From: a virus
Strand: one strand, 5' to 3'
Length of the DNA stretch: 64,000 bases
Virus record (IMG/VR): IMGVR_UViG_3300021963_000080
Span: 22,562-86,561 of that record
Shown here: positions 39,301 through 54,092 of the stretch, piece by piece
How positions within the stretch are numbered: the first letter of the stretch is position 1
Layout of the letters: each line of letters begins with the position of its first letter
Translations under genes and position numbers: made by a program
Notes under the pieces: generated by a model
The model's database searches: none
What the model was told of the DNA's origin: nothing
The model's input: only the letters and a program-made list of their open reading frames with translations

Positions 39301-39860
39301 ATGCTAAGATCCTTAACTTCACGGATGGAGAGGCATTTGAGGATAAAGACTGGACATTGATGGATCAAGTGACATCTGGTGCCATATACAGTGATTCATT
39401 GAATGAGGAAGACTATAGAGAATATGAGTACACATTCCCTAAAACTCCTCCATCAACATTATTGTCTGGGGTCGTTACAACATACTCGAACACTACTATT
39501 ACAGGCGTAGATACTACATTCTCTACAACAGTTGTTGCTGGGGATTTGGTCAAGATTGTTAAATCCAACACATTAACAGACTATGATTTGTTCCCTGTTG
39601 TATCTGTAGCGAATAATACGTCACTACAAGTAACATCTAACACATCGTTTACTGGGACTGGTAACACGATTGAGCTTGTAACCCAGAAGAAGGCTGCGTT
39701 CAAATATACACGTAACAATTATATTACTCGCTACCACGATTCAAACAATGCTGCATTTGATACATACAAATACATGGCAGTAAAGATTGTATTGTTATCT
39801 CCATACAATTACTTGGTGCCAACATTGAATGATGTTCGAGTGTTAGCGGTATCAGTATAA
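33363..39860 (+). CDS. Giant virion structural protein (DUF4815/VrlC-like)
   Basis: PYFDDY..KNYHRVLFKP..AVQARELTQLQ, APGADR, RTFEESGNY, RFKNGFFVD, DPLSQTF. Confidence 0.85.
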   Translation: MPLDKQTTTLAQTPYFDDYDETKNYHRVLFKPSVAVQARELTQLQTILQNQIERFGDNIFRTGTIIKGCSLTTDDQYYYVKLFDTQINGNSYTLSALTNTYVTESSSNLTAVSVNYKTGGQQTDPDLNTLYIKYLNTGTGGQKAFSNGATLTIYNRNYRVETIAINSGGTLYSNSDTIAFSGGGGAGAVAGVTTYANGTLKSIEITDNGSGYTTSPTVTVTTSTGSGANLTSFNYLAQIAVANSLYTAPTGRGYAVKTSEGVIYQKGHFIRVGSHEEVVSKYNTSPNNVVIGFHTTEAVVNSNSDQTLLDNANNSTNYTAPGADRLKLTANLVVLSTANAASNNDFLALYEFENGRIIKDRTTTQFNSINKELSKRTFEESGNYVVDPIPMYTESISGNTTHLNLVIGAGLAYVEGNRVQIYNNTKIPLRKSTNTITNDAQTISTNYGGYVYVKELLGNFDIKLGTTVTLRSTAGTDLSDNAGGSPTTPGTQIGTAQVRSLVFDAGTPGTPDCQYRLYIYDVKMSSGFSFKDVRSIAVAGVGVADVVLNADNLAVINDIQYDSLIFNTGTFGVQTLTNETFISRSQTNAAFAVGGTLSTSFSGGNTLPYSAGSTLNSVQERDFIVIPQTTLVSSTNKTGTVATTSGANTVTGTSTLFTSEYSVGQFIKVGTQDPLRIVKISSNTSIQVANNFAASLSANVHTIAYPANVPIDFQNQAGKSIAIDGTQTTLTLNLGHGLTGTGTVSIYHDIQNESPAVKVKTVKSPVFVKLSTAATTTSTTGPWCLGIPDAYEVTGVYVGSANTYSNTTTNYVNEFFLDSGQNDNYYGLSYLKKRPGSTLAIANTNCLLVSLKAFTHGVGKYISTESYASAIDDATEPLPSNKIRTQDVPVYTSPKTGKAYDLRDVIDFRPICSNTANVNATAVAGATIDPSTTITFASAEKYFPSPTREFTASVNSYLARQDRVVIDTYGGITVTEGIPANNPSGPSEPKGTMTIGMVNVAPYPSLSAKDAADSSRTDLGVYINPMQNKRYTMKDISDIERRINRLEYYALLNTLEQNTKQLVLPGEANSSIERFKNGFFVDPLTDYNVSNLNDAEYSVIIDTNKGVARPNFSDVKIDLVYDSANSTNTTKTGDIVTLSFTEKNLVQQPIANKIRTLVDQFWKYKANVSLYPPYDNYYDITRKGVSITVDIATPLNALARATSSALSQLNVSTNLDSVANVGNAIFVGMNGTNRVFEQDVLKTFTDTKVKINPGQELITQQNLGDYVTDFTLRPYIREQRIYFFTAGLRPGATHYVFFDNVNVSSYVTPASITVFTNVTENSFTVTGAKGAALVAGDNGQLAGYIDLPGGTFFVGERNVVIMDVDATASETSATSKAVGSFVAYAYGVNKTNLSLSTKTIDVTYDNSFGVANYTNTYVVSDKVRFERPDPLSQTFRVQRQLADTDGVFITGIDVFFRAKDATQGVTLELRETNNGVPSHIIVPFSRTRLSPANVSVSETASNATSFTFASPVYLKTETDYAIVIYPDANSPEYTIWTAETGVKDVANTSLISNQNWGLGTMFYSTSGTAWTPVQDEDLKFTVKRALFNNLSGTAKVHNGDYEFLTLANTEGYFTGGETVAQLSNTYLSGTFTTNVANVVVGTSSSQAAALSVGDNVLFVYSNNAAIGTGNVNVTTVTVSNGGGQTTDFVTEYSAGDFIRIGSDIRQVVAVTNSTSITIDSALSTSASNSTHYRMDPVFDVSRVTAANSSTITINKVPKLTSNASIIVNGQKVVRGVVSAYDYGNTKIYISSSTSANDTFKIQTSNSAYRGTIVGDTSQALGVVSTVDNIKANIFRPLINTLQIPGTTVSLVGTLTTNAGSTDTKSYFLTASSRLDLGDDAIIKSKSNEIVGSTITKSFTADLQMSGATTDISPLVDMNPSSVVLTRNLVNNDYTNETGRFGSATSKYVSKRIALADGLDAEDAKIFITAYKPSGTTIQVYAKILNFTDGEAFEDKDWTLMDQVTSGAIYSDSLNEEDYREYEYTFPKTPPSTLLSGVVTTYSNTTITGVDTTFSTTVVAGDLVKIVKSNTLTDYDLFPVVSVANNTSLQVTSNTSFTGTGNTIELVTQKKAAFKYTRNNYITRYHDSNNAAFDTYKYMAVKIVLLSPYNYLVPTLNDVRVLAVSV

Positions 39861-39868
39861 GGTGAGGG

Positions 39869-40087
39869 ATGCTTATCAAAACAAACGACGCCAGTTTTAT
39901 GCGCGATGAGGATACTACCGCGCTGATAAATACAAATAAGACAGCATATGATTTGTATAAACAGCAACGCAACACCATTGTAAGCAACCAAACATTAAAG
40001 GCTGAAGTTGATATGTTAAAACAAGACCTCAGCGATATTAAACAACTTTTAGGACAGATAGCACAAAATGTCGGTATCAATCGCTAA
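39869..40087 (+). CDS. Small coiled-coil protein
   Basis: RD..T.ALIN, EV..LK.DL.DIK.LL. Confidence 0.8.
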   Translation: MLIKTNDASFMRDEDTTALINTNKTAYDLYKQQRNTIVSNQTLKAEVDMLKQDLSDIKQLLGQIAQNVGINR

Positions 40088-41543
40088 CGTAAATTTATCT
40101 ACAGATACATTCCAAAACTGGTTGGATAAAACCAATCAAGTATTGGATAAGGTATCTACCGTCGTTGTCACTACCGCTGCTAATACTGCTGGCGGGTTGA
40201 CGGCTGGTAACGCAAGTGTTAATGGAATATTTTCTGCTAACGTAATTGCTGTGGGGGAAAGTCTACGTGGCGGTACTGTAACAACCGCAGCCAACCTTGC
40301 AATTACATCTAACGTTGTATTCTCAGGAGCAAACGTTGGTGGATCTGTTACAAACTTCAACTTATCGTCTTCTAACGTTGTTATTGATTCTGCTGTTACA
40401 ACAATTAGCGGTGGTACTCTTACTGTTACCTCAAATGCTAACTTCAAGAGCAATACAATCTTTATTAATACGGCAGGTCGTTTAGGGGTTAATACTGGAT
40501 CGCCTGACGCAACATTGTCTGTAGTTGGTACTGCAAACGTTTCTGGTAATGCTAAGTTTTCTGGTGTTGTTACTCTTGGCGCTAACGTCAACATCCAAGC
40601 AAATACAACTCTAACTCTATCGAGTGTTCCCAATAGCGGTTATTTGTTCTTTGGTAATACAAACTTACGCTACCTCGGATACGATGCTTCCCAATATGTG
40701 TTTGCTGTTGCAAACGTTGCTGTACAAGGCACGTTAATAGCAAACGCAATTACTGCAGCTGCAAACGTTACACTAGGAGCCGGGGTGGGCAGTGGGGTTT
40801 ATATTGTAGGGGACGTCACTGGCAATGCTAATACTTTATCAAGATCAGTAACTGCTGGTTCGTATATGTCTGGTGGTGGAACATTATCGACAAACATCAC
40901 ATTGAATGCTAATGCTTCAGCAGCTGCCACAGCAAGCGTTCTTGTAGCACGAGATGCTAATGGTAGTTTCTCTGCTAACGTTGTAACTGTCAACAACATT
41001 ACAATATCTTCTGGCACTCTAACATCAAACGTTAGTGGTACAATTACTCAATCTAATAATATCTTATTTGGCGGAACTGCATATCCTGGAGCCCTAACTT
41101 CTATTGGAAGTACGGTAGCATTAAGAGATAGTAGTGGAAATATTACTACCAACTTGTTTGTTGGTACAGCAACCGCAGCTCGATATGCTGACTTGGCTGA
41201 GATGTATTTGGCTGATCAAGATTATCCAGTAGGAACAGTTGTTAAAGTTGGCGGCTCAAAAGAAGTTACTGCATATACGGCTATTGACTACATTCGCGCT
41301 TTAGGTACAATATCTGATAAACCGGCTTATCTAATGAATAAAGACTTAGAAGGTGGCGTTCCAGTTGCATTAAAAGGTCGTGTGCCTGTTCGTGTGCTTG
41401 GATTAGTTAAAAAAGGCCAAGGATTAGCTGCAAGTGCTATTCCGGGCGTCGCAGCAATGAGTGCAATTAACTACTTTGCTATTGCACTAGAAGATTATGA
41501 AGACTTTACAAAAGAAGGGCTGATTGAGGCTGTAATTTTATGA
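40068..41543 (+). CDS. Tail-fibre-like structural protein
   Basis: TDTF..W..KTN N-terminus; C-terminal YADLAE.Y, VALKGRVPVRV domain. Confidence 0.8.
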   Translation: MSVSIANVNLSTDTFQNWLDKTNQVLDKVSTVVVTTAANTAGGLTAGNASVNGIFSANVIAVGESLRGGTVTTAANLAITSNVVFSGANVGGSVTNFNLSSSNVVIDSAVTTISGGTLTVTSNANFKSNTIFINTAGRLGVNTGSPDATLSVVGTANVSGNAKFSGVVTLGANVNIQANTTLTLSSVPNSGYLFFGNTNLRYLGYDASQYVFAVANVAVQGTLIANAITAAANVTLGAGVGSGVYIVGDVTGNANTLSRSVTAGSYMSGGGTLSTNITLNANASAAATASVLVARDANGSFSANVVTVNNITISSGTLTSNVSGTITQSNNILFGGTAYPGALTSIGSTVALRDSSGNITTNLFVGTATAARYADLAEMYLADQDYPVGTVVKVGGSKEVTAYTAIDYIRALGTISDKPAYLMNKDLEGGVPVALKGRVPVRVLGLVKKGQGLAASAIPGVAAMSAINYFAIALEDYEDFTKEGLIEAVIL

Positions 41544-41544
41544 T

Positions 41545-43596
41545 ATGAAAATACAATTTGTGAATTATTCCATGGCCGCAGAGGTTCTTGGAATTGATTA
41601 TGCTTGGTTAACTCTCAAATCGTACTTCGAAGAAAACAATAAACACAAGACTCAGTGGGAATGGTTAGATCCAATCACTGAGTCTTATGCTTTTCACGTA
41701 GACGATCTCGTTAATGAAATTATAGAACGTAAACCTGATGTTCTAGGATTCTCTCTTTACGTTTGGAACGTTGGACTATCTCTACAGATAGCAAAACAAG
41801 TAAAGAACAAACTCCCTAATTGCAAGATTATTGTAGGGGGTCCTCACATAACATACAAAGAAGATATTAATTACTTTAAAGTAAATAATTTTATCGATGC
41901 TGTATGTAAAGAAGATGGTTATGGTGAGGTATTCCTTACGGAGTACTTGTACCAACTCGAACAACCGACTCCTGATCTTACCCAAGTCCCATACTGCATA
42001 TATCCGCACAACGGAATGTGGAAAGAATCATTTGCAAGTTTCTACAAACGAGATTTTAAATGGCCTGTTCGAATTTACAAACACAACAAGGCCTACATCG
42101 ATCGTCGTATAGAAAAATCAATTAAAGAAAATAAAAAACTCTACGTAGCTTATGAGACGTCGCGAGGATGTCCATTTGGTTGCACTTATTGTGAGTGGGG
42201 TGGGGGGATCAATTCTAAGGTCACTTTCAAACCAACTGAGTTAATTATAGAAGATATAGATTTTATACTTGGTTATGTAAAGCCATTTTTCTTTTCATTT
42301 ACAGACGCCAATTTCGGAATTATTGACCGAGATGTTGACATTATTAAACATATATGTGCATGGAGAAAACGTGCTTCGGTTCCTAGTATTATGTACTTCT
42401 TTGGCCCGTCAAAAGTCAACAAACACAACGTATATGAGATTGAATCTCTGACAGCAGAATATGGAATGCTTTCCGACTACAAAGTCCCTGTACAAGATCT
42501 AAACAGAGATGTGTTGAAGAATATTGACAGAACAGATGAAGATTGGAAATTGCAATTAGAAAACTATATTAAGATTAGAGAAAAGCATGGTGGCAAAATC
42601 CGACTCGAGATGATTCTTGGCTTGCCAGGTGCTACTTTAGATAGTTACTACGAAGCCTTAGATTACTCGTGTACAATGGATACGTTTGGCAAGAGGTATG
42701 TTTGGCACTTGCTACCTACAACGCCAGCATCAAAAGCAGAGTATCGAGAAAAATTTAAAATACAAACTCTGAAAACAAGCTTTGGTATGAGAAGTACGAA
42801 CGATGGTACCTTTACAATTTTAAAAAAGCATTTTGTTGAAAATTTAAATGTTGCTCGAGATCTTGTAGTTGATCCGGAATGGATGTGTCCTACAGAAATT
42901 GTAATTGAGACGATGTCTTATTCTAAAGAAGAATGGCTGACAATGTTTTTAATGGACTATGTTGTTCACCAAGCAGAAGTTGGAGAGTTACTTTCTTCTA
43001 TTACAAAATACATGGCTAGTACCGGTATTCCTCATAGCGTATTTTATAGAAAGTTGTGGGATTCTTTTCTTTTTGCAGAAGGAAATGGCCTTACACCTAC
43101 TCAGAATATCTTGCTTCAATCTATGTGGCAGCAGGGTTTAGAAAAAATACAAAAAGACGAAGCTGTTGATTTTGAATACTTCGATGTTCCGGAAAACTTC
43201 CCATTCCAAGTTCGCTGCTTGGCTGGCCCATTGTTTAACATTATGCTGTATAGTAATATTAAAGCGTTTTATATTGCACTTGCTAGATGGTGTAACATGC
43301 AGTTTGGTGAAGATCCGATTCGGGATGATTTAATTGTATATACTTCTTCTATGATTAAAAATATAAACTACACCCCTAATCAATATACTTTTTCTACTGA
43401 ATATGATTGGTCAAAATACAGGACCAATGGCGTTTTTGTTAAACGACCAACAACATACCAACCAAACGACTTAGTGCTTTGGGGTGAAATGACAGATATA
43501 AATACACGAATAAAACAACATTTTTTATCTATTTGTTCGAATATGAATGGGACAAAACTTTTTGAAAAAATAAAAGTGTCATATCCAAAAAAATAG
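41545..43596 (+). CDS. B12-binding radical SAM protein (class B methyltransferase-like)
   Basis: N-terminal PDVLGFSLYVWN...IIVGGP cobalamin domain; ETSRGCPFGCTYC; DANFG; ILGLPG. Confidence 0.88.
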   Translation: MKIQFVNYSMAAEVLGIDYAWLTLKSYFEENNKHKTQWEWLDPITESYAFHVDDLVNEIIERKPDVLGFSLYVWNVGLSLQIAKQVKNKLPNCKIIVGGPHITYKEDINYFKVNNFIDAVCKEDGYGEVFLTEYLYQLEQPTPDLTQVPYCIYPHNGMWKESFASFYKRDFKWPVRIYKHNKAYIDRRIEKSIKENKKLYVAYETSRGCPFGCTYCEWGGGINSKVTFKPTELIIEDIDFILGYVKPFFFSFTDANFGIIDRDVDIIKHICAWRKRASVPSIMYFFGPSKVNKHNVYEIESLTAEYGMLSDYKVPVQDLNRDVLKNIDRTDEDWKLQLENYIKIREKHGGKIRLEMILGLPGATLDSYYEALDYSCTMDTFGKRYVWHLLPTTPASKAEYREKFKIQTLKTSFGMRSTNDGTFTILKKHFVENLNVARDLVVDPEWMCPTEIVIETMSYSKEEWLTMFLMDYVVHQAEVGELLSSITKYMASTGIPHSVFYRKLWDSFLFAEGNGLTPTQNILLQSMWQQGLEKIQKDEAVDFEYFDVPENFPFQVRCLAGPLFNIMLYSNIKAFYIALARWCNMQFGEDPIRDDLIVYTSSMIKNINYTPNQYTFSTEYDWSKYRTNGVFVKRPTTYQPNDLVLWGEMTDINTRIKQHFLSICSNMNGTKLFEKIKVSYPKK

Positions 43597-43619
43597 ATAA
43601 AATAATAAAAGGTAAAAAC

Positions 43620-44216
43620 ATGGTTATTTTATTATCTCATACATTAGAATCCCAAACAGCTTTCAATGTACAGCAAGTCGTTAATACTTCTGAGCAGAAT
43701 TCTTTTATCGAATCGCTTCATCAGCGCAGAGCTCTTTTTCAAGGCGATACTTCTCGTGAGATAAAAGATCGTTTAATAGACGTCGCCAGACAACATCCAG
43801 AAATATACGGACAAGGTGCAGGAGACCAATGGCAGCAAGGAAATTTTGCTACGACCATATTACAAGCAGCTGAAGATGGAACATTGCAATCAAAATTTAT
43901 CTTTTGTTTTGAAAAAATATTCGATCAATTATTTCCATATGTTATTCAACAACTTCCTGCAGATCAAAAGACGTTATTGGTATATCCTGCCGTGAGTTAC
44001 AAGCCCAAAGGCGTTGATCATTTTATTGGTTGGGCTGTCAATCCCCAAGATTTTGGAATAGAGCATATGGAAGAGCACGAGCGAATTGCAAAAGAAGCAG
44101 CGCTGCATTTATCTGAAGCTCATAATAGCTGGATGAGAGAAAATCAACAACAATATGATAAATTTTTTGATGGAGCTACTTCTCAAGAAGTAATTCAATA
44201 TATTAAGGGATTATGA
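43620..44216 (+). CDS. Hypothetical protein
   Basis: AAGG RBS; TATAAATA at 43497-43504 upstream. Confidence 0.75.
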   Translation: MVILLSHTLESQTAFNVQQVVNTSEQNSFIESLHQRRALFQGDTSREIKDRLIDVARQHPEIYGQGAGDQWQQGNFATTILQAAEDGTLQSKFIFCFEKIFDQLFPYVIQQLPADQKTLLVYPAVSYKPKGVDHFIGWAVNPQDFGIEHMEEHERIAKEAALHLSEAHNSWMRENQQQYDKFFDGATSQEVIQYIKGL

Positions 44217-45181
44217 AGCATTGGCTTTTTACACGTGCCCAAAGTAGACCTCCTGATTGGGAACGTATAGCGGATAGTGTGAATCTTACTCCGATTGTGG
44301 TAAAATCAGAAACGGAGGAAAGATATTATACCGTTCCTGTTAATAAAACACTTGTTCCTGAATCAAAACATCATTATATAAAACAATGGCATCACGGTCA
44401 AACGCTAATGCAGTTTGATAAAGATGTAACGTCTCTTGCTGTTGTAAAACATAAAGATGGTGCAACAATTACGCAATCATATATTCCGGAAGTATTGCGA
44501 GATGAGTATAATAGTAGAATAATAGATTTAGATTTTCTCGAGCGCACTTTAGATAAAAAAGGATGGTGTGCTTTGGGAATGTTAGTTGAAGGAGATGAAC
44601 CAGTCACCCAAACTGCTCTCTTACGAGACTCACGTTATATTGTTAGAGACGATCAATATAGATTGTTGTTTGCTGATACAAATGAACTGTGTGGATTGGA
44701 TAGTCCTGTTAAGTCCCTGTTGTTATTTGTCGCTTTTAAATTGGGAAGAACAAACGCTTACATCCTTGTTGTGAATCCTAATATTGTTAGTTTACATGGA
44801 GAACTTGGAAGCGTTAATGAGCAACGAAGTGTAGCAGCTTGTGCTAGTTTTTCTAATATTGTACCGTGGTTTGCTTTTGCTCCCAGACTAAACTGCAATC
44901 TTATTAATAATAATACTATTGTTGTAAATAGGGGAGAACTGGAGCTTGCTATTGGAGGGGCGTCCATAATACAATATACAACTCTCCGTGGTGTTGAGAA
45001 TTTAGATTTTACAGTAGAATGTTCATGGGAATATAATGTGGTTGATAACGTTATTAGAGTTAAAAGACAGCCCGGTGTTGGTTATATAAAAATTATAACC
45101 CCTTGTATTGATATGACAAAACAATATGTAACAGCAGAAGATAGAAAAATAACATTAGAATATATTCTTTTAGGAGTATGA
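44213..45181 (+). CDS. Hypothetical protein
   Basis: ATGA overlap; 322 aa. Confidence 0.75.
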   Translation: MKHWLFTRAQSRPPDWERIADSVNLTPIVVKSETEERYYTVPVNKTLVPESKHHYIKQWHHGQTLMQFDKDVTSLAVVKHKDGATITQSYIPEVLRDEYNSRIIDLDFLERTLDKKGWCALGMLVEGDEPVTQTALLRDSRYIVRDDQYRLLFADTNELCGLDSPVKSLLLFVAFKLGRTNAYILVVNPNIVSLHGELGSVNEQRSVAACASFSNIVPWFAFAPRLNCNLINNNTIVVNRGELELAIGGASIIQYTTLRGVENLDFTVECSWEYNVVDNVIRVKRQPGVGYIKIITPCIDMTKQYVTAEDRKITLEYILLGV

Positions 45182-45182
45182 A

Positions 45183-45377
45183 ATGACAGCAGATACAACA
45201 TCGACATTTACGTCAGGGACCGGCGCCCAAGGTACCAAGACAACCGTAGATACGATCACGGCTGCCCACTTCACCCAAATGTTGGATATTGTAGATTCGT
45301 TGGTCAGTCATGGCCATACATTCTATGATGATTATTCAACTAATTGTGAGTGTCAGTGTGGACGCGGTTCGCTATAG
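45183..45377 (+). CDS. 64-aa putative precursor/substrate peptide (HxH motif, C-terminal CxCxC)
   Basis: AGGAG RBS; ...SHGHTFYDDYSTNCECQCGRGSL*. Confidence 0.75.
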   Translation: MTADTTSTFTSGTGAQGTKTTVDTITAAHFTQMLDIVDSLVSHGHTFYDDYSTNCECQCGRGSL

Positions 45378-45393
45378 ATGAATCGATTATAAC

Positions 45394-47040
45394 ATGAGTC
45401 AAGTGAACGTAGTAAAAATATACAGAACATTAAATGATGCTCAAAAAGAACGTATTGCCAATCATGCTGCAACAGTAGTTCAGCTGGAAGATGGTACGTT
45501 GAAGACAACCGTCGATACAATTATTACCCCTGCCGGTTTAGAAAAACAAAATAAACTAATAACTATTGTTCCGTCGGAAGAGGAACAAGTAAAGAGTTTT
45601 GATCAAGCAAAGCATCTATTCAGTAATTTAATTCATATGAATTTGTTGCTGACAAATGCTTGTAACTTGAGCTGTAGCTATTGTTACGAACAGCATAAAA
45701 AAGATTATGGTAGATTCACGGTTGAATCTGTAAAGCAATCATACGACTGGCTCAGCAATATTAACAAACAGCCGTTAAAGATTCTCCAGTTCTTCGGAGG
45801 CGAGCCACTAATACACAAACCACTAATTCAAGACTTCATTAAGACGTATGATGAAGAGTTGAACGCTAATTGGAATAATTATATTGGTACAGGGATCTCT
45901 ATTTGTACGAATGGGTTGTTACTAGATGATGATTTTATTGATATGTACTTTAACAAAAAGTACACGTATATGTTGATTAGCCTCGATACAATGGATCTCA
46001 AAAAAGACTACAGAGAGATCACACAAAAGCAATTAGATACAATCCTTCACAATGTTGAACGTATCACTAAGATACCGAACGTCGGAGCAAGACTGACAAT
46101 CCGCTGTACATTATCTGAAGAGACTGCTGATAGTCTACACGAATTTATAGAATCAATTTACTCAAAGGGAGTTAAGCGTTTAATTATTCACCCTTTAGTT
46201 CTCGACTCAAAACGCGGGTATATTAAATGGAGTAAGGATAATTGGAGTATGATGCGCGAGGCAATACTCGGATGTTTAGACAAGTATCAAGACTTGACCG
46301 TGTTGTTTAGTGAGGGAGTAGGAGAGAAGCAAGATAACAACTGTATGGTTGGTTCTGATATGATTGCTATTGATGGTAGTGGAGACTTCTCAGGTTGTTA
46401 TTTCTTTACAAACCAAAAAGCTGCTGCTCACGAAACTATCCTCGGTAACATATTACAAGATAGAGTGTATGTAGACCGTTACATAAAGTTTCAGAAAATC
46501 TACAACGAGATGTTTGAAGTAGAAGAGCAATGCAAGGCTTGTGATTATCAAAGTATGTGTTACCAATGTCCGGCTGGTAATATTGATACTGGTCCACGTA
46601 TGTTCAGACCAGATGATATGTGTCAAGAGATTGTAAAGTTATATCTTGATCTACAAGCAGATGTCGCAAAGAAACAATTTCGTCGTTTGTTTGAAATTAG
46701 ACTCCAACAACTACAACTTGAAGGTGAGCAGCAAACAATAGCAGCTGGAGCTGACTATATGTTGGAGTACTTGAAGACTGGCCATAGAGTAATGTTCGAT
46801 CCTTCTAAAGATAAACAATATAAACCATATAAGCAAATTTTATTAGATATTTGGTCGCACATAAGTGGAGAATCGAACGATAGTGGTGAGATGGAAGCAG
46901 TTGAGTTGTATAGATCGTTAGCCAAAAGAACTGGTATGTTACCAAAAGTTGTTGATGGAGATACGCCTGAGATAAGAGTATTTTATTTGCAATTGATTTC
47001 CACTATGATATTTAATGAGAAGAACCATGGATTTAACTAA
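45394..47040 (+). CDS. Radical SAM/SPASM protein
   Basis: CNLSCSYC, FFGGEPL, TNG; SPASM C..G...IDGSG....C, CKAC.....C..C. Confidence 0.92.
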   Translation: MSQVNVVKIYRTLNDAQKERIANHAATVVQLEDGTLKTTVDTIITPAGLEKQNKLITIVPSEEEQVKSFDQAKHLFSNLIHMNLLLTNACNLSCSYCYEQHKKDYGRFTVESVKQSYDWLSNINKQPLKILQFFGGEPLIHKPLIQDFIKTYDEELNANWNNYIGTGISICTNGLLLDDDFIDMYFNKKYTYMLISLDTMDLKKDYREITQKQLDTILHNVERITKIPNVGARLTIRCTLSEETADSLHEFIESIYSKGVKRLIIHPLVLDSKRGYIKWSKDNWSMMREAILGCLDKYQDLTVLFSEGVGEKQDNNCMVGSDMIAIDGSGDFSGCYFFTNQKAAAHETILGNILQDRVYVDRYIKFQKIYNEMFEVEEQCKACDYQSMCYQCPAGNIDTGPRMFRPDDMCQEIVKLYLDLQADVAKKQFRRLFEIRLQQLQLEGEQQTIAAGADYMLEYLKTGHRVMFDPSKDKQYKPYKQILLDIWSHISGESNDSGEMEAVELYRSLAKRTGMLPKVVDGDTPEIRVFYLQLISTMIFNEKNHGFN

Positions 47041-48091
47041 CATTAAAAGTGTAGTAATCTATCTTGGCGATACGTGTAACTTTGATTGCGTGTATTGTGA
47101 TAGAGCATTCATAAGAGAAGATGTTGGTTCTCAGAATATGAAGAGTACAGCTGTTAATGATATTGTTGCTTTTATGGATGCAGTTGTTGAGAGCGAGCAT
47201 CCGCTTCAATATGTGAGCTTCCATGGCGGCGAGCCAATGCTATATGTTAAGAAGATGGATCACATACTTGACAAGATAGCTCCCCACTTGGAAAAGATTG
47301 GTTGTAAGTTCGCAATGACTACCAACGGTTCGTTGATTGCAGAGAATGCTTGGTTTTTTGAAAAGTGGGCCGGTAAATGTCAGATTACTTTCAGCTACGA
47401 TTTCAACTATCAAGATATTAATAGAGCCCCGGTTGATTTAGAAGCTGTTGCTAAGGTATTGCATGGCACTCGAACAAACTGCTTGTTCCAATTTGTTGTT
47501 CCCATCTCTACGCCCGGAGCATTAGACTTAGAAACTTCTACAGCAATAGTTAATGCTTGTAAACTCCTTCGTTGTAATGTTGTTAACTTGATTCCTCTTA
47601 GACATTATCGCGGTAAACAGAAGTTCAAAGTTCTACTAGATGATTTAAATCTCGATAGATTCATGTATGACTTTTCTAAGATGTTACATACTTTATATGT
47701 AAACGGTGTTGTATGTTATATTGACGGAAACTATACGGATATTGACAAACAATATTTGGACAACCATGGAAAGCTAATACTTGGACCGGACGGATATCTA
47801 TATCCTGAATTTGATTTCCTCGAATATAAGCGAGATGAATTTAGAGTCGGTAAATGGAGAAACGGAATTGAATTGTATAGACAAGGAAATGAAGAGTCTC
47901 TAATTAGACCGGGTTGCACTAATTGCATCTCTCGTCAGTATTGCGGTTTGAAGTATCTCTATAAAATGTTTGACGAAGAGCCAAAAGGAAACTGCGTTAA
48001 GTTTTATCAAACCATCAACGTGCTTGTTAAGCATATGAACAAATTAAACCAGAAACCTTCATTATTACATTGGGTAGGAATAGATGAGTGA
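47027..48091 (+). CDS. Radical SAM protein with partial SPASM
   Basis: CNFDCVYC, FHGGEP, TTNG; CTNC.....C near C-terminus. Confidence 0.9.
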   Translation: MDLTNIKSVVIYLGDTCNFDCVYCDRAFIREDVGSQNMKSTAVNDIVAFMDAVVESEHPLQYVSFHGGEPMLYVKKMDHILDKIAPHLEKIGCKFAMTTNGSLIAENAWFFEKWAGKCQITFSYDFNYQDINRAPVDLEAVAKVLHGTRTNCLFQFVVPISTPGALDLETSTAIVNACKLLRCNVVNLIPLRHYRGKQKFKVLLDDLNLDRFMYDFSKMLHTLYVNGVVCYIDGNYTDIDKQYLDNHGKLILGPDGYLYPEFDFLEYKRDEFRVGKWRNGIELYRQGNEESLIRPGCTNCISRQYCGLKYLYKMFDEEPKGNCVKFYQTINVLVKHMNKLNQKPSLLHWVGIDE

Positions 48092-49205
48092 ATATGTCGG
48101 AGAAGACTTTGAGCAATACCAAGATCATACTACGTACTTTCTCAGAGAAGACTCTTTAAGTCCTCTAACGTTTGATCTTTACTTTACTCCAACATACAAA
48201 TATACTTGTCATGCTGGATGTCAGATTTGTTATATTAAGGATAAGTTAAAACAAGGGTTCTCTACGTTTCCTCAGAACGTTCCTTCTATCATATCAACAA
48301 AAGATGAGCAGCGCTGGTATGATGTGTTCGATCACTTCTACGTAATTCGTACAAACGATGATCTAACGTACCTCCGTCTCAATTATCCATACATATTTGA
48401 GTGGTACAAATCACACGGAGAGATATTTGAATATGGTATGACTGATAATGCTGTATTAACTCATCGTAAGACGCTGATGGATAATATTACAATGAAGGGT
48501 ATGGCGGATATCAGTCTCAGCGACCACTTCCTTGTAAAGACAAATAAAAACAAACAGATTATAGAAGTGTTGAATGATTATGCTTCCAAATACAACATTG
48601 CTAAAATAAAGATTATACGAACAACAGACGGACCTGCTCCTCCTCAAGTAGAGGAGATTGTCAATTGGATGAATGAGCGGGGATTGTATAACTGCTTACA
48701 ACACGATCTTAGAGATGATGCCAACGCAAGATATGATTTAGAAGGTAAGTATGATTACCAAAATACATACGTTCTAAGTCACAATAATAAAACATACCAA
48801 ATATACAGAGAAGCAATCCACTTGTACAACGATCGCTTCTTTTATAGTATTGATGATGCTACCGATATTGATTGGGATCCGTTTTTCATATTTGATAAAG
48901 ATCAAGACTTCAATCCTACTGAACTAATGTATGAGATGTTGAGCGGCAAGAAAAAGCTATACGGTAAATTTGCTAATGAAATCAAACCAACAAATAAAGT
49001 TGAGCAAAAGTTTGTCGATTACTTCAACGAAGTTCAGAAGTTTAAATTTAATCCTGATTTTAACTTTGTCCCTGAGTTTATGTTAAAATCTAATTGTAAG
49101 TTCTACCACAAATTAATACAGAGTGGGTTTAAAAGCTTCCAATACGGGTTAATTAAACCAAATTCCGGCGCTAAGACGATCCCGATTATTCAGTGGGATA
49201 AATAG
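48084..49205 (+). CDS. Divergent radical SAM-like protein
   Basis: CHAGCQIC CxxxCxxC near N-terminus; no GGEP. Confidence 0.7.
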   Translation: MSEYVGEDFEQYQDHTTYFLREDSLSPLTFDLYFTPTYKYTCHAGCQICYIKDKLKQGFSTFPQNVPSIISTKDEQRWYDVFDHFYVIRTNDDLTYLRLNYPYIFEWYKSHGEIFEYGMTDNAVLTHRKTLMDNITMKGMADISLSDHFLVKTNKNKQIIEVLNDYASKYNIAKIKIIRTTDGPAPPQVEEIVNWMNERGLYNCLQHDLRDDANARYDLEGKYDYQNTYVLSHNNKTYQIYREAIHLYNDRFFYSIDDATDIDWDPFFIFDKDQDFNPTELMYEMLSGKKKLYGKFANEIKPTNKVEQKFVDYFNEVQKFKFNPDFNFVPEFMLKSNCKFYHKLIQSGFKSFQYGLIKPNSGAKTIPIIQWDK

Positions 49206-49220
49206 CTTTAGGAGGGGAAT

Positions 49221-49613
49221 ATGGCTCAATCAGAAAGAAGTCAACAAGCTGGATATCCAAAAAATAACGACACAGGTAACGAACTTAGCACGGAACAATC
49301 GAGCATAAGAAGCAACCTGAGGTCTCGCTTCGTCACAAACAACACTGTTTTAGCAAGCGATGTGAATAACTTGCGCACGTTGATGAATGCTTTTCAGAGA
49401 CATTATCACAGATACACTGATTACGATAGAATTCAAACATACGGTAATAATGGTAGCACCGGATCAAGAGATGTAGACACTTCTATACTAGGAGGATATT
49501 CTGATCCAGGTACTGTTTCTGCGGGAGATGTGATTACAACATCTTATATCAATGGTCACGTTAATGCAGCAAATGTATTACGAAGCCACAACCACGCTAT
49601 CGACGACGCATAA
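49221..49613 (+). CDS. 130-aa protein with two helix-HxHxxxD repeats (putative substrate)
   Basis: AGGAGG RBS, GATAAATA late-type promoter at 49197; repeat shared with 45183 peptide. Confidence 0.8.
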   Translation: MAQSERSQQAGYPKNNDTGNELSTEQSSIRSNLRSRFVTNNTVLASDVNNLRTLMNAFQRHYHRYTDYDRIQTYGNNGSTGSRDVDTSILGGYSDPGTVSAGDVITTSYINGHVNAANVLRSHNHAIDDA

Positions 49614-49630
49614 CCCAATACACTTATATT

Positions 49631-50941
49631 ATGTCTTTTGCTAAATTTGAGATTAAACAAACCGGTCAAACATTCTATTATAACAACGATAGAAACTCCA
49701 TTGTAAACGCGGAAGGACAGTCGTTATCCGCTTCACCGATCCACTCCGAAGAATGGTATGCTGAGCAAGCAGCTCAAAACGGTGTTATAACAAAAACTAA
49801 TAAGCCTGTTGGGCTTCGCATTCTATTAGGACACGCTTGCAATTATTCTTGTTCCTACTGTATGCAGAAGGATATTGGAGATCCGAGTGAGCGACCAGAG
49901 AATTTCTGGACTCCTGATTTCCTTGAATCGGTAGAAAAGTATCTTGATACGTCTCTGCTAACTCGTATTGAATTGTGGGGTGGAGAACCATTTTTGTATT
50001 GGAATGATATGGTCAAAATAATGACCCATTTTGATAGTGAGAAAATATCGTGGTATATTTCCACTAACGGAAGTGCTCTACGACAGAAGCATGTTGATTT
50101 CTTCAAGCAATTGAAGTCGCCAGTTGCAATGGGAATAAGTCACGATGGACCAGGTCAGGAATCATTGCGGGGCGAGGATATATTCCAACGTCCGCAAGTT
50201 GTAGATGTATTAAAGCAACTAGATTTATTGTACCCAAAATTTCAATATAGTTTTAATCCTGTAGTAAGTAATACAAACTTTAATCTATTTGATATAAATG
50301 ATTATTTTTATAAGCTGGCTGTTGATAACCAGTTGAAGAATTGTAAGATTAGTTTTACGCTCGGTAGAACATATGATGATACAGACTCCAAGAATAGTTT
50401 TGAGCATGTAATACATGGTGAAAATTTGAAAGCATTTAAAATAATAACAGAAGATTACATGAATGCCGCAATAGAGCAGTTGAAGAAGCACGGAAGATCT
50501 AAAACTTTACCTATATTACAATCTAATATTTTTGATGGGGATACTGGTGCAATTAAGTTTGCGCAATCTGTGAAGAATGAGCTTCCAATAACAATTACAA
50601 CTAATTGCGGAGCTGATGCAAAAGATATATTGAGTGTGGATTTGAGGGGAAACGCTAGATTATGTCCTCACACACACGAAAAATACAATGGTGGCCATAT
50701 ATCTAATATCAAAGGGATAAAGATAGTATCGCTTGCTTTGGATAGAAAAAAGACACACTGTTCTGATTGTCAAGTTCGCCGGTTATGTAAGAGTTCATGT
50801 CCGATTGATTTTCCGACTGATGTATTTCTGAAGAATTGCCGTGTTGAAAAAATATGGTATGGAAGCGTACAGAATGCAGGATTCAAGATGTTATTTGGTT
50901 CAGATGTAGAATTGAAGGAAACGGGAATTGCAAGTGTATGA
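49631..50941 (+). CDS. Radical SAM/SPASM protein
   Basis: CNYSCSYC, LWGGEP, STNG, ISHDG; CG...VD..G....C, CSDC.....C...C. Confidence 0.92.
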   Translation: MSFAKFEIKQTGQTFYYNNDRNSIVNAEGQSLSASPIHSEEWYAEQAAQNGVITKTNKPVGLRILLGHACNYSCSYCMQKDIGDPSERPENFWTPDFLESVEKYLDTSLLTRIELWGGEPFLYWNDMVKIMTHFDSEKISWYISTNGSALRQKHVDFFKQLKSPVAMGISHDGPGQESLRGEDIFQRPQVVDVLKQLDLLYPKFQYSFNPVVSNTNFNLFDINDYFYKLAVDNQLKNCKISFTLGRTYDDTDSKNSFEHVIHGENLKAFKIITEDYMNAAIEQLKKHGRSKTLPILQSNIFDGDTGAIKFAQSVKNELPITITTNCGADAKDILSVDLRGNARLCPHTHEKYNGGHISNIKGIKIVSLALDRKKTHCSDCQVRRLCKSSCPIDFPTDVFLKNCRVEKIWYGSVQNAGFKMLFGSDVELKETGIASV

Positions 50942-51669
50942 TCGACACATCCCGTATTATTGCTAAACAGCAATCTTTATCTAATCACTCATTATTAGTC
51001 ACAAACTCAATCCAAACAATCGACGATTTGCGGATATTCATGGAACACCATGTATTTGCAGTTTGGGATTTTATGAGTTTGATCAAGTCGTTACAGCATA
51101 GTGCGTGTCCGTCTACTAATTTTTGGGTACCAACAACTGGTACTCGTAGCTCAATAGCAAGAACGATTAACGAGATTGTATTATGCGAAGAGTCTGATTT
51201 GACTCCTGATGGTAAATCTTCAATAAGCCATTTTGATTTATATCTCCAAGCAATGGAAGAAGTTGGAGCAAATACAGAAGCAATTGTTCGGTTTTTGGAA
51301 GCAAAAGACTTTGCAGTTATTCCGGAACCGTCCCGTGCATTTGTTGAAACAACATTCCATACAATAGATCAAGGACCCCATTGCGTTGCAGCTTCGTTTT
51401 GCTATGGGAGAGAAACAATAATCCCAGCAATGTTTAAGCGAATCCTTAGACAGCTCAATATTTCTAGCCTCGATGCTCCTAAGTTTTACTATTACTTGGA
51501 ACGTCATATCGAGGTCGATGGTGATGATCACGGCCCAAAAGCTCAGATGCTAGTTGAATATTTTTGCAAGAATGATCCGTTCAAGGCTCTTTGGGCAGAA
51601 AAAGCAGCGATTGAGGCTATAAATGCCAGGATAAAACTATTTGATCATATTGAATCTCTGGTCTTATAA
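50938..51669 (+). CDS. DUF3050 heme-oxygenase-like (di-iron) protein
   Basis: FMEHHVFAVWDFMSL.KSLQ, INEIVL.EESD, SHFDLYL.AM, YYLERHIEVDGDDHGP. Confidence 0.88.
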   Translation: MIDTSRIIAKQQSLSNHSLLVTNSIQTIDDLRIFMEHHVFAVWDFMSLIKSLQHSACPSTNFWVPTTGTRSSIARTINEIVLCEESDLTPDGKSSISHFDLYLQAMEEVGANTEAIVRFLEAKDFAVIPEPSRAFVETTFHTIDQGPHCVAASFCYGRETIIPAMFKRILRQLNISSLDAPKFYYYLERHIEVDGDDHGPKAQMLVEYFCKNDPFKALWAEKAAIEAINARIKLFDHIESLVL

Positions 51670-51672
51670 ATA
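51665..51672 (+). promoter_or_regulatory. T4-type late promoter
   Basis: TATAAATA upstream of structural genes. Confidence 0.75.
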
Positions 51673-51702: not shown

Positions 51703-52032
51703 ATGGCTATCAAAGCAAATCTAATAATTGATCAAGGCGCGACCTACGCAACCAAGCTAAACATTACAGATGCAAATGGAAGTGCTGTGGATTTGACGGG
51801 GTATTCAGCTGCCGCTCAAATAAGAAAGCATTACACTTCATCCAATTCAACCTCGTTCTCAGTCAGTCTTACACCGGCGACTGGGGCTGTTGTCCTGTCT
51901 CTTTCGTCTAATGCCACTGCTAATTTGATTGCTGGACGTTATGTTTATGATGTTGAGTTGATAGATGGTGCTGGTAGAATTTCCAGAATCATCGAGGGTA
52001 CAGTTACAATAACACCAAATGTAACGAGATAA
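51703..52032 (+). CDS. Conserved small virion protein
   Basis: NL.IDQGAT, DLTGY...AQIRK.Y.S, GRYVYDVE, EG.V...P.VTR. Confidence 0.85.
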   Translation: MAIKANLIIDQGATYATKLNITDANGSAVDLTGYSAAAQIRKHYTSSNSTSFSVSLTPATGAVVLSLSSNATANLIAGRYVYDVELIDGAGRISRIIEGTVTITPNVTR

Positions 52033-52036
52033 AGCA

Positions 52037-52267
52037 ATGGCAATTGATACAACGAATCAAATAACTGTTGAATTTACACCAGTTGATACGTTCCAATCTA
52101 CTGATATTTTAACAATATCAGGAACTACTGCAGTTCTTAATAGATTGGATGGTCTTGACGATGTTGTGGAAGGCGTATCGGTCGCTAATAACATGACTTT
52201 AGTGTACAATTCAGCAACAGATAAATACGTAGTACAAGAACTAAATTTGGACGGGGGAACGTTCTAG
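52037..52267 (+). CDS. Small virion protein
   Basis: L..L.DV, LVYNS, ends LDGGTF. Confidence 0.8.
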   Translation: MAIDTTNQITVEFTPVDTFQSTDILTISGTTAVLNRLDGLDDVVEGVSVANNMTLVYNSATDKYVVQELNLDGGTF

Positions 52268-52268
52268 A

Positions 52269-54092
52269 ATGTCAAACTTAATACAGATTAAACGCAGTAG
52301 CTCAACTACTGCGCCAGCGTCGCTAGCGAACGGCGAATTCGCCTACTCGTTTGCGACATCATCCAACACATTGTGGATCGGCGATCCACGCAATGTAGTA
52401 CCAGGTACTCCGTTACGAATTGCTGGTGGTAAATACGCTTTCCTACATCAGGCGGGTCTTCAGGCCGGCACCGATGAAGGTGGTAAACTAACTGCCAACG
52501 CCGTTGTAATCACTAACGCTAATAACTTCCTAGATCAGTTTAAAACCAATACTATTGTAATTGGTCCTGATGGCACCACAAATGCAGCTGCGACGTTAGT
52601 TGTTTCAGGCACAGCAAATATTTCCGGTAATACAACCATTGGTGGAAATCTTTCAATCGTTGGCGGAACTACAATTGGTGGAAACGTAGCATTTGATACA
52701 GATACGCTGTTTATTGATTCGGTCAATAATCGTGTTGGTATTCTAACTACGACTCCTGATGCTCCATTACAAGTAAACGGAGCTGCTAACGTTGCTGGGG
52801 CTGTTAAGCTAGGTAGCACGCTAACTGTTACTGGTCTAACAACTCTAAACGGCGATCTTAATACCACAACAGCAAATGCTACAACCGGTATTAACGTTGG
52901 TGCAAACGTTAACGTTTCTACATCAAAGATCACTGTTGGTAATTCGTCTGTTAATACAACGATTACTTCAACAGCAATCAACACTCAAGGAACATTGGAT
53001 GTTCTAAGAGCAACAACTTTATCAAACACGATTGCCGTTACTGGCAATGCTACTTTCAGCAATACTATTGCTGTTACTGGCCAGGCAACATTTACAGCAA
53101 ACGTTGTTGTTGATACGAGCACATTCTATGTTGATACAACAAACCATCGCGTTGGTGTTCTAACAACTACCCCTGACTCAGGATTCCAAGTAAACGGAAC
53201 TGCAAATGTTGTTGGTAATACTACAATCGTTGGTAAGTTATTACAAGTTGCAAATGCTTCATTCAGTAATACAATAGCTGTTACTGGCAATGCAACATTC
53301 TCAAATACAATTGCTGTTACTGGTGCTGCTACATTCAGCAATACAATTACTATCGCAGCTAACGTTGCTGTTGATACAAACGTATTGTTTGTTGATACTC
53401 TCAACAACCGGGTTGGTATTAACGATGCAACTCCAGCGGTAGCTTTAGCAATCACTGGTAGTTCTACAGTATCTGCCAACTTAACAGCAAACAACTTATT
53501 GATCAATGCTGATGCAACGATCAACGGTAACTTATCTGTTAATGGTACACTTACAACAATTGATACAGTTAACTTAGTTGTTGAAGATCCATTATTCAAG
53601 TTAGCTAAAAACAATAACGTAGCAAACAGCGCTGGTGATACAGTAGACTCTGGTTTCTATGGCATGTATGCAAATACTACCACAGATATGTTTAGCGGTA
53701 TGTTCCGCGATGCGTCTGATGGTAAGTATAAGTTATTTACTGGATTAACTGCTGAGCCAACAACTACTGTTGATACATCAGCTCCTTCATTCAGTTATGC
53801 AACTCTGAATGCATTCTTGGAGATGAGTGGCTTTAATGCTAATACTACTCAATTCAACGTCACTGCAAACTCAACATATCAAGTTGCTTTAGTTGCAAAT
53901 ACATTAACGTTAGCGACTCAGCTTGCAGTTGGTAGTGGTGGTACAGGAGCAACCTCGTTTACATTGAACGGTGTTCTGTATGGAAACTCAACAAGTGCTG
54001 TTCAAGCAACAGCAGCTGGTGCAAACGGCGATGTGTTACAAGTCGTGAGCAACGTTCCAGCGTTCGGAACTCTTGATGGAGGCACGTTCTAA
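52269..54092 (+). CDS. Tail fibre protein
   Basis: IQIKRS...L..GE.AY N-terminus; VD..N.RVG repeats; SNTIAVTG repeats; ends LDGGTF. Confidence 0.85.
   Translation: MSNLIQIKRSSSTTAPASLANGEFAYSFATSSNTLWIGDPRNVVPGTPLRIAGGKYAFLHQAGLQAGTDEGGKLTANAVVITNANNFLDQFKTNTIVIGPDGTTNAAATLVVSGTANISGNTTIGGNLSIVGGTTIGGNVAFDTDTLFIDSVNNRVGILTTTPDAPLQVNGAANVAGAVKLGSTLTVTGLTTLNGDLNTTTANATTGINVGANVNVSTSKITVGNSSVNTTITSTAINTQGTLDVLRATTLSNTIAVTGNATFSNTIAVTGQATFTANVVVDTSTFYVDTTNHRVGVLTTTPDSGFQVNGTANVVGNTTIVGKLLQVANASFSNTIAVTGNATFSNTIAVTGAATFSNTITIAANVAVDTNVLFVDTLNNRVGINDATPAVALAITGSSTVSANLTANNLLINADATINGNLSVNGTLTTIDTVNLVVEDPLFKLAKNNNVANSAGDTVDSGFYGMYANTTTDMFSGMFRDASDGKYKLFTGLTAEPTTTVDTSAPSFSYATLNAFLEMSGFNANTTQFNVTANSTYQVALVANTLTLATQLAVGSGGTGATSFTLNGVLYGNSTSAVQATAAGANGDVLQVVSNVPAFGTLDGGTF

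Follow-up and report, generated by a model that had tools for sequence, protein, structure and literature searches.

Metal sites made of His-x-His (HxH) motifs occur in trimeric phage fibres and spikes, with P2 gpV and phi92 gp138 as examples in addition to T4. Radical S-adenosylmethionine (radical SAM, rSAM) enzymes, for their part, carry out peptide chemistry that is known from bacterial natural products and from few protein substrates; those of the PapB and QhpD types join Cys to Asp or Glu, and we know of no radical SAM chemistry on virus particles. T4 gp37 has 8 HxH motifs, 7 of them within residues 883–998, and these sites are reported to bind iron (PMC11705849). A 2026 report (PMC13692751) describes a SPASM enzyme whose substrate, in which it forms thioethers, is a protein, T4-like marine phage genomes contain up to 12 radical SAM genes, which Nishimura et al. 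(PMC5332604) mention in an Fe-S context with no explanation given at that place, and a 2025 cyanophage paper, where it names a lone rSAM maturase, labels it an “antibiotic synthesis gene” (PMC12801897). Here we describe a gene cluster in a 64,000-nucleotide stretch of DNA (“the window”) from an 86.5-kb IMG/VR virus record, IMGVR_UViG_3300021963_000080, that belongs to a T4-like phage and is rated 51% complete. In it two small genes, one for a 130-amino-acid protein (the two-unit gene) and one for a 64-amino-acid protein with a Cys-rich tail (the small gene), stand among genes for radical SAM enzymes, which we name by their lengths in amino acids (rSAM548, rSAM358 and rSAM436); other proteins are given as p plus their length (features and coordinates in Table 1). 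The two proteins share a helix-HxHxxxD unit that is present twice in the first and once in the second, and we tentatively propose that they form one enzyme-matured, metal-binding part of the tail-fibre gear.

The first-pass annotation of this DNA had described three helix-HxHxxxD units of identical spacing, and their sequences and positions are as it quoted them: each of the three 26-residue stretches has His as its residues 20 and 22 and Asp as residue 26. Across the window’s 127,996 six-frame codons the pattern H.H...D appears at 7 places, the units accounting for three of them. Comparison by hhalign of the small-protein alignment (A6, 41 sequences) with that of the 130-amino-acid family (A4) gave a probability of 97% and an E-value of 1e-10 over 41 columns, with small-protein residues 13–53 aligned with unit 2. 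The A4 profile has exactly two matches in the window’s own record: it finds the 130-amino-acid gene at E 1.7e-34 and, over profile positions 88–141, the small gene at E 5.9e-8. In records G001, G004 and G005 it likewise reaches the small protein and finds exactly two genes, and so three units, per record. In the opposite direction, a hidden Markov model (HMM) of the small protein made 275 domain matches, at a permissive domain E ≤ 10, among the best 150 proteins of the two-unit family; in two-motif proteins 133 of these matches cover motif 1 and another 133 cover motif 2, and its 25 best matches have independent E-values from 3e-10 to 4.5e-6. By these profile comparisons the three units are homologous and their likeness is not due to chance; the motif is kept in every relative examined, and the unit is a real, highly conserved module.

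The 130-amino-acid protein matches phrog_31780 (E 2.3e-8, residues 19–129 on profile positions 13–122 of 125), a family that takes in ORF074 of phage RP12. A word-indexed search returned close relatives alone (11 for the 130-amino-acid protein and 7 for the small protein), and a profile search of 1.84 billion representatives returned 219 proteins at E ≤ 0.001, 79 of which lie at E ≤ 1e-10. Two H.H...[DEN] motifs are present in 144 of the best 150 of these 219 proteins, one motif in 5 and three in 1. In an alignment of 122 members, whose mean column identity is 18%, columns H61, H63, H123, H125 and D129 are invariant, and D67 and G75 are conserved in at least 90%. The 130-amino-acid protein contains no Cys, and in most family members the chain stops 1 to 5 residues past unit 2. 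The protein with three motifs, P0156 (221 amino acids), is a natural fusion that holds all three units in one chain, and its third unit is the top match to the small-protein profile among the 150 representatives (33.5 bits, 3e-10).

Several relatives contain additional domains: a beta-propeller of ~260 amino acids (Lactonase, 1.8e-6) is inserted between the units of P0099 and a Gly-rich domain between those of P0115, and an ILEI-like domain (P0145) or Hint domains (P0095, P0144 and P0157) are appended C-terminally. Fibre modules of other phages also encode proteins with relatives of the propeller and Hint domains. An IMG/VR search with P0144 and P0099 gave matches on the Hint and propeller parts only and none on the two-unit scaffold, a BLAST comparison of 10 fused relatives’ extra domains with every open reading frame (ORF) of the collected loci gave nothing beyond Hint matches, and the distant members P0096 and P0069 had no match by tblastn against phages or in an IMG/VR search. 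An unrelated IMG/VR phage (L095:9449-11907) has a 358-amino-acid Hint-domain frame with a CX3CX2C motif, immediately followed by a relative of rSAM436 (26% identity, E 9e-29).

We found the small protein at 67 loci, which together yield 43 distinct sequences. M33, H43, H45, D49, C55, C57, C59 and G62 are invariant in the 41 that were aligned, and across the 43 distinct orthologs the tail consists of 3 to 6 Cys-x repeats, which acidic residues adjoin, and ends in RG[ST][LIV]. When it is modelled alone by AlphaFold2 (AF2), the small protein has a mean predicted local distance difference test score (pLDDT) of 60 and helix 27–41 as its sole predicted element, as would be expected if this piece folds on a partner. 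A search for longer fused forms found one, P0168 (154 amino acids), an apparent read-through after CQCNC; judged by this single form, the small protein seems to stand alone. It has no match at E ≤ 0.01 in Pfam, NCBIfam or PHROG, the SCIFF and other Cys-rich rSAM target families included. The Shine-Dalgarno sequences TAGGAG and TAGGAGG precede the small and the two-unit gene, respectively, and none is recognisable before the rSAM genes at 45394 and 49631; strong ribosome-binding sites on the small genes only would fit plentiful products and scarce enzymes. The ribosome-binding context is near-identical in the two genes, with TTTAGGAG(G) 6–8 nt before the ATG of both (45153-45182 and 49191-49220). 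The T4-type late promoter sequence TATAAATA is found 4 times in the window, where 5.7 are expected, and since it is not enriched we draw no inference on timing from it; one copy at 51665-51672 ends 31 nt ahead of the gene for a 109-amino-acid protein, and another, at 43497-43504, lies ahead of the p198 gene.

With the 122-sequence alignment as input, AF2 modelled the 130-amino-acid protein with a mean pLDDT of 92.3 and a predicted template modelling score (pTM) of 0.79, and on this prediction we count it as a folded protein. The model consists of helices 22–36, 45–59 and 107–121 and a hairpin with strands at 64–70 (or 61–70) and 81–86; motif 1 lies at the start of the first strand and motif 2 after the last helix. 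Mean-field couplings were calculated from 200 distinct family sequences (effective number of sequences, Meff, 157). The third-ranked pair, Y65-I127, joins the residues at first His plus 4 in both motifs, a position that is F47 in the small protein, and other top pairs are V85-I127, D67-I127, R52-Y109 and M55-A117, the last two of which link the helix of unit 1 to that of unit 2. Since these coupled pairs run between the units, the units would pack side by side, and because strand positions i, i+2, i+4 and i+6 lie on one face, the His, His, hydrophobic residue and Asp of each unit would be co-facial, with the two faces meeting. Foldseek found nothing in the PDB at E ≤ 0.001 for this model, and its BFVD search found the RP12 ortholog only (E 5.8e-7, TM 0.73); in a wide search independent of Foldseek (VIA-align) the best Z was 5.4 (8ub3) and TssK (6n38) had 5.2, which is the tool’s stated noise level. 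Cupin motif 1 reads G-X5-H-X-H-X3,4-E-X6-G, and a cupin was considered and rejected, the model being three helices and one hairpin and not a beta-barrel, and no cupin Pfam match being found.

The genomic neighbourhood of the two genes was collected with two DNA patterns, the first spanning both motifs and covering 27 of the 150 representatives at the protein level, and the second made for a distant “DLxGxDT” subfamily and covering 17 of the 150. In 185,579 species genomes the first pattern gave 4 matches, 3 of them chance and 1 real, the latter on a phage-like contig binned with an Alteromonadales metagenome-assembled genome; from these matches the two-unit family appears essentially absent from bacterial genomes and restricted to phages. 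In metagenomes the same pattern gave 76 loci, 70 real and 6 chance (repeat DNA). At least one rSAM-type gene of the cluster is present in 52 of the 70 real loci, and as the remaining 18 end no more than 1.3 kb downstream of the small genes, none of them counts against linkage. IMG/VR loci found by alignment or by pattern have the same genes, including a complete 222.8-kb genome with terminal repeats. In the DLxGxDT subfamily the cassette is present in 6 of 6 real IMG/VR loci: five have the two-unit gene, the small gene, a gene for a protein of ~300 amino acids, rSAM548 and rSAM358 in this order, one of them on a 378.9-kb contig, and the sixth, followed into its full record, has the cassette 2.1 kb downstream. 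IMG/VR and metagenome loci in some cases probably stem from one contig (L007 and L052, for instance, both have 13,382 bases), so these counts are not all independent. One distant-subfamily locus (L098:5100-6392) has an extra rSAM548-like gene (431 amino acids, 31% identity) between its p373-like and rSAM436-like genes.

The order of the genes varies more than their company. The window’s order (small, rSAM548, rSAM358, p373, two-unit, rSAM436; order A) is found in 10 of the 70 metagenome loci, the order two-unit, small, rSAM548 in 22, and the order B12-rSAM, two-unit, small, rSAM436, p373, rSAM358, rSAM548 (order C) in 14; 13 more have the two-unit and small genes and then end, and 11 are partial. 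The gene for the 683-amino-acid B12-binding rSAM enzyme is confined to orders A and C. Of the 57 loci with both the two-unit and the small frame, 38 have them abutting, with anything between 9 nt of overlap and 40 nt of gap, and they also abut in RP12, in RP31 and in the distant subfamily. An earlier claim, that each of the two genes lies directly upstream of an rSAM gene, thus holds in the window, where rSAM genes begin 16–17 nt past both unit-bearing genes, and fails as a general rule; across loci the two small genes and the cassette remain linked, without each small gene having an rSAM gene of its own. The first-pass annotation had named two outcomes that would refute it, a motif not kept in homologs and homologs without linkage to rSAM genes, and the relatives and loci examined here show neither.

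Among cultured phages only the Ralstonia jumbo phages RP12 and RP31 have a match to the family, and megablast of the cluster DNA against cultured phages gave no match. Their gene order is ORF074 (two units), a 65-amino-acid one-unit ORF with a CNCNCACTRGSL-type tail, a 295-amino-acid protein, four rSAM-type homologs and DUF3050. The 65-amino-acid ORF has no annotation in the GenBank record of either phage (the tblastn match has “none” under it). The authors of the RP12 paper term the DUF3050 homolog MgoB-like (PMC5468394), and the passage in which they place the rSAM and MgoB-like genes under “other genes” makes no mention of ORF74 or the small ORF (PMC5468394). Our literature searches found no description of either protein family or of the cassette as a unit; new here are the shared helix-HxHxxxD unit, its 2+1 split over two proteins, the size of the family, its restriction to phages, the unmatched fold and the three-unit fusion.

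The enzymes of the cassette were examined for Cys motifs and family matches. A CX3CX2C motif at C90, a CX17C with GX4C and a CX2CX5CX2C are present in rSAM548, and rSAM436 has CX3CX2C at C70, GX4C and CX2CX5CX3C, so that by CX3CX2C together with C-terminal auxiliary-cluster Cys motifs they are assigned to the radical SAM/SPASM superfamily; rSAM436 has no match to Pfam SPASM. The best matches of rSAM548 are thioether-forming maturases, namely PapB (the best in NCBIfam, 3.4e-34), the SCIFF maturase, QhpD and SkfB (the best in the PDB, 6efn, 5.2e-6), all far under the family cut-offs: against the 340-bit cut-off of the PapB family NF047865, rSAM548 scores 118.6, rSAM358 54 and rSAM436 44.4 bits. 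The B12-binding enzyme has its CX3CX2C at residue 209, and its match to the KedN5-type NCBIfam family (1.9e-33) is below cut-off. A His-Xaa-Ser system was considered and dropped, the HxsB/HxsC matches being weak and among dozens of others.

The surroundings of the cluster include virion-type genes. In the window it is preceded by baseplate-wedge genes, the 2165-amino-acid protein and p491, the C-terminal part of which is tail-fibre-like, and it is followed by the 109-amino-acid protein, which matches fibre-assembly PHROGs, and a 607-amino-acid fibre-like protein. T4-like loci have the gene of the fibre-like p491 immediately upstream of the two-unit gene, as in the commoner gene order (p2165, p491, two-unit). 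In RP12 the genes upstream of ORF074 are ORF072/073, for tail or virion structural proteins (phrog_2163, 1e-145; phrog_13857, 1e-99), and in L097, L098 and L102 the upstream gene is weakly fibre-like. The cluster lies in the fibre module in four phage lineages, and the linkage of the two small genes to the cassette and to fibre-type genes is strict.

We suggest the following arrangement as the most probable of the readings considered, though with less than even odds of being right. The 130- and 64-amino-acid proteins would be subunits of one small assembly belonging to the tail-fibre (host-recognition) gear. Each unit would be an amphipathic helix followed by a strand, one face of which presents four residues, His at i and again at i+2, a hydrophobic one at i+4 and Asp at i+6, and the three strands, of which the large protein supplies two and the small protein the other, would pack about a pseudo-threefold axis. 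Their three HxH pairs could then form a six-His metal site, as in truly trimeric fibres such as T4 gp37, with a hydrophobic layer and an Asp layer beneath it. Behind the third unit, the (Cys-x)n tail would be acted on by the radical SAM/SPASM maturases encoded alongside it and would most probably receive thioether-type cross-links. What results would be a fibre-associated part that is loaded with metal and stapled covalently. In this arrangement it is the hetero-assembly, the metal binding, the virion location and the chemistry that we infer. It is suggested by the fact that the putative ligands, His and Asp, are with one Gly the only invariant residues of the two-unit family, and the abutting frames together with the three-unit fusion P0156 argue that the two genes work together; for the enzymes, the argument is one of family resemblance. 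The “metal-binding mini-fibre” of the first-pass annotation is compatible with these data, and would be better described as a 2+1 hetero-assembly (a pseudo-trimer) than as a homotrimer. The broader statement, that several phage lineages (T4-like phages of water, jumbo phages of the phiKZ type and a phage of 379 kb) build such a hetero-pseudotrimer with a six-His site and a Cys tail modified by 3–5 rSAM enzymes and a DUF3050 oxidase, is possible and, taken as a whole, rather doubtful.

A number of observations weigh against this arrangement. Without a significant PDB match, a structural role is not shown by structure. Helix 22–36, which has no HxH, fills the third place in the AF2 three-helix bundle, so a third unit is not obviously needed. 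With all filters off, the A4 and A6 profiles score <2 bits against T4 gp34–38 (<1 bit for gp38), and there is thus no sequence similarity to the gp37 HxH repeats. Couplings at an Meff of 157 are noisy, and invariant columns carry no signal in them. The natural fusion P0156 lacks a Cys tail, the RP12 and RP31 proteins are annotated as hypothetical and not as virion proteins, the domain-insertion relatives may be without cassette linkage, and the context samples, being pattern-derived, reflect only part of the family.

A different division of labour between the two proteins would make the 130-amino-acid protein a chaperone or scaffold comparable to a recognition element of RiPPs (peptides that are synthesized ribosomally and then modified post-translationally) such as PqqD, one that binds the small protein’s unit through pseudo-symmetric complementation and offers its Cys tail to the enzymes; the product would be the modified small protein or a fragment of it. 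The homology of the units, the abutting genes, the count of three units per genome and the disorder of the small protein outside its one helix all suit such a role, and since the rSAM proteins have no PqqD or RiPP recognition element (RRE) match in Pfam, a separate recognition protein would be sensible. We nonetheless think it unlikely, as it would leave unexplained why relatives have inserted or appended propeller, Gly-rich, ILEI-like and Hint domains, why the gene regularly follows a fibre-type gene, and why His and Asp are invariant rather than a hydrophobic groove.

More improbable again is a classical RiPP pathway, with both proteins as precursors, the unit as their common leader or recognition part, and a released bioactive peptide or a peptide-derived cofactor as the product. 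The 64-amino-acid protein does look like a RiPP precursor: it is largely unstructured, a leader-like helix followed by a repetitive, modifiable Cys core of variable repeat number, and an rSAM gene is adjacent or one gene off. PqqC, a haem-oxygenase-like protein, acts in the synthesis of pyrroloquinoline quinone (PQQ), and the haem-oxygenase-like DUF3050 partner recalls it beside the maturase-type rSAM/SPASM enzymes. The shared-leader idea of the first-pass annotation breaks down, however, at the 130-amino-acid protein, which is confidently predicted to be folded and thus not a leader peptide, has no Cys, and has relatives with whole domains between the units; as its chain ends right after unit 2 (1 to 5 residues past it in the family), no core peptide follows. 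Neither a leader protease nor an exporter was recognised in the cluster by Pfam, PHROG or NCBIfam, though p198 and p322 have no family match, and the position in the fibre module in four phage lineages and the single real match of the first pattern (a phage-like contig) in 185,579 species genomes also speak against this pathway.

We give somewhat less credence still to the idea that the HxHxxxD residues are themselves the targets of the radical chemistry, through thioethers from Cys to the beta-carbon of Asp or through modification or cross-linking of His, with the three units matching three to four rSAM enzymes. It would account for the invariance of His, Asp and one Gly alone in the two-unit family and for the three invariant Cys and three invariant Asp overall, and rSAM548 is closest to PapB/QhpD-type enzymes, the known Cys-to-Asp/Glu linkers. 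The number of Cys, though, varies from 3 to 6 while the units stay three, and P0156 has three units and no Cys tail. Least probable of all is that the two proteins are fibre-assembly chaperones, absent from the particle, and the cassette an unrelated neighbour in a variable region: they do occupy the classical chaperone/adhesin slot directly after a fibre-type gene, as T4 gene 38 follows gene 37, but a cassette linkage that survives three gene orders and at least four phage lineages is hard to explain as mere neighbourhood.

Table 1. Features of the cluster and its surroundings (window coordinates, except for the RP12 ortholog in the last line).
Feature	Coordinates	Strand	Matches and remarks
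2165-aa protein, upstream of cluster	33363-39860		DUF4815 (9.3e-55)
p491, 491 aa, tail-fibre-like C-terminal part	40068..41543	+	phrog_22593, phrog_6427, phrog_19602 (tail fiber protein, 2.2e-7), residues 345-464
B12-binding radical SAM enzyme, 683 aa	41545..43596	+	Pfam B12-binding 2e-11, Radical_SAM 1.5e-7
p198, 198 aa	43620..44216	+	homologs within window-like loci
p322, 322 aa	44213..45181	+	place beside small gene taken by ~300-aa gene in most loci
Small protein, 64 aa	45183..45377	+	one helix-HxHxxxD unit and CxCxC tail, GRGSL end
Unit 3, T24-D49	45252..45329	+	HGHTFYD at 45309-45329
Cys tail CECQCGRGSL	45345..45374	+	candidate maturase substrate
rSAM548, radical SAM/SPASM, peptide-maturase kind, 548 aa	45394..47040	+	Pfam Radical_SAM 5.7e-17; SPASM 0.0015 (under Pfam cut-off)
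rSAM358, radical SAM enzyme, 358 aa	47015..48091	+	partial C-terminal Cys motif
p373, 373 aa, divergent radical-SAM-like protein	48084..49205	+	CHAGCQIC; CX3CX2C at residue 42; phrog_36229 1.9e-35
Two-unit protein, 130 aa	49221..49613	+	predicted folded alpha/beta domain, phrog_31780 member
Unit 1, T42-D67	49344..49421	+	HYHRYTD at 49401-49421
Unit 2, V104-D129	49530..49607	+	HNHAIDD at 49587-49607
rSAM436, radical SAM enzyme, 436 aa	49631..50941	+	canonical CX2CX5CX3C SPASM-type motif; Pfam Radical_SAM 5.7e-11
DUF3050 protein, haem-oxygenase-like kind	50854..51669	+	Pfam DUF3050 4.1e-72
109-aa protein, follows cassette in many loci	51703..52032	+	phrog_1084 1.4e-29; phrog_3304 (“L-shaped tail fiber protein assembly”) 2.7e-24
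RP12 65-aa small ortholog	L001:12426-12623 (record 82888-83085)		

Every gene from 41545 to 51669 is on the + strand. In most T4-like loci the genes of the 2165-amino-acid protein and p491 stand together, as a conserved pair, ahead of the two-unit gene. For p198 and p322, scans of Pfam, PHROG and NCBIfam gave no match, p322 has weak BLAST relatives in L002, L004, L013, L098 and L102, and Atlas look-ups returned viral clusters without names and nothing else, with nothing usable for p322; p373 has no match in Pfam. Taken as its longest ORF, the DUF3050 gene shares 88 nt (50854-50941) with the end of the rSAM436 gene, and since its Pfam match begins at residue 43, a later ATG is probably the true start. 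Downstream, a 76-amino-acid ORF (52037-52267) and the 607-amino-acid fibre-like protein (52269-54092) have the same terminal residues, LDGGTF, which may be a C-terminal element shared between neighbouring fibre genes.

If the proposed arrangement of 130- and 64-amino-acid subunits is right, an enzyme-matured, metal-loaded host-recognition component would be a kind of virion maturation not described in print, and would show in compact form a metal site of the trimer type that two unequal chains rebuild. Should the His units bind iron, this would bear on the phage-fibre iron pool that has been proposed for the sea (PMC11705849). Phage radical SAM enzymes gain concrete partners, a 130-amino-acid protein with an unmatched fold and a 64-amino-acid Cys-tailed protein, in the cultured phages RP12 and RP31 as well.

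Of the systems with which the locus can be compared, the trimeric-fibre HxH sites of T4 gp37 and gp12 resemble the predicted arrangement in having His-x-His on one strand face, a host-recognition setting and three copies for an octahedral six-His site. They differ in that the units here follow an alpha-helix and carry xxxD, whereas the gp37 repeats follow Gly-rich strands and have no xxxD, and in that the putative site here is split 2+1 over two small proteins and is not that of a homotrimer. The T4 gp38 chaperone, the T2/S16 gp38 adhesin and lambda Tfa share with the two-unit gene the slot directly after a fibre-type gene, and relatives of the two-unit protein hold inserted Gly-rich or carbohydrate-binding-type domains as such proteins do, but there is no sequence relation, and those proteins have no tie to radical SAM enzymes. 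The Cys motifs of rSAM548 and the repetitive Cys substrate tail are like those of PapB/PapA (ranthipeptides), SCIFF/CteB, QhpD/QhpC, SkfB and CrpC/CrpA, and CrpC is reported to show that such enzymes can act on proteins (PMC13692751). Unlike those thioether maturase systems, the present one has 3–4 rSAM-type enzymes together with DUF3050 and sometimes a B12-rSAM, a phage host, no recognised protease or exporter, and a partner protein that shares the “leader” of the substrate. In this last respect it resembles the leaders of the NHLP and Nif11 types, which derive from folded proteins: there, too, a Cys-rich maturase substrate has an N-terminal part with homology to all or part of a folded protein that stands alone. 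Here, however, the folded homolog lies in the same cluster as the substrate and equals it in conservation, and this argues for a physical partnership between the two proteins rather than mere descent of one from the other.

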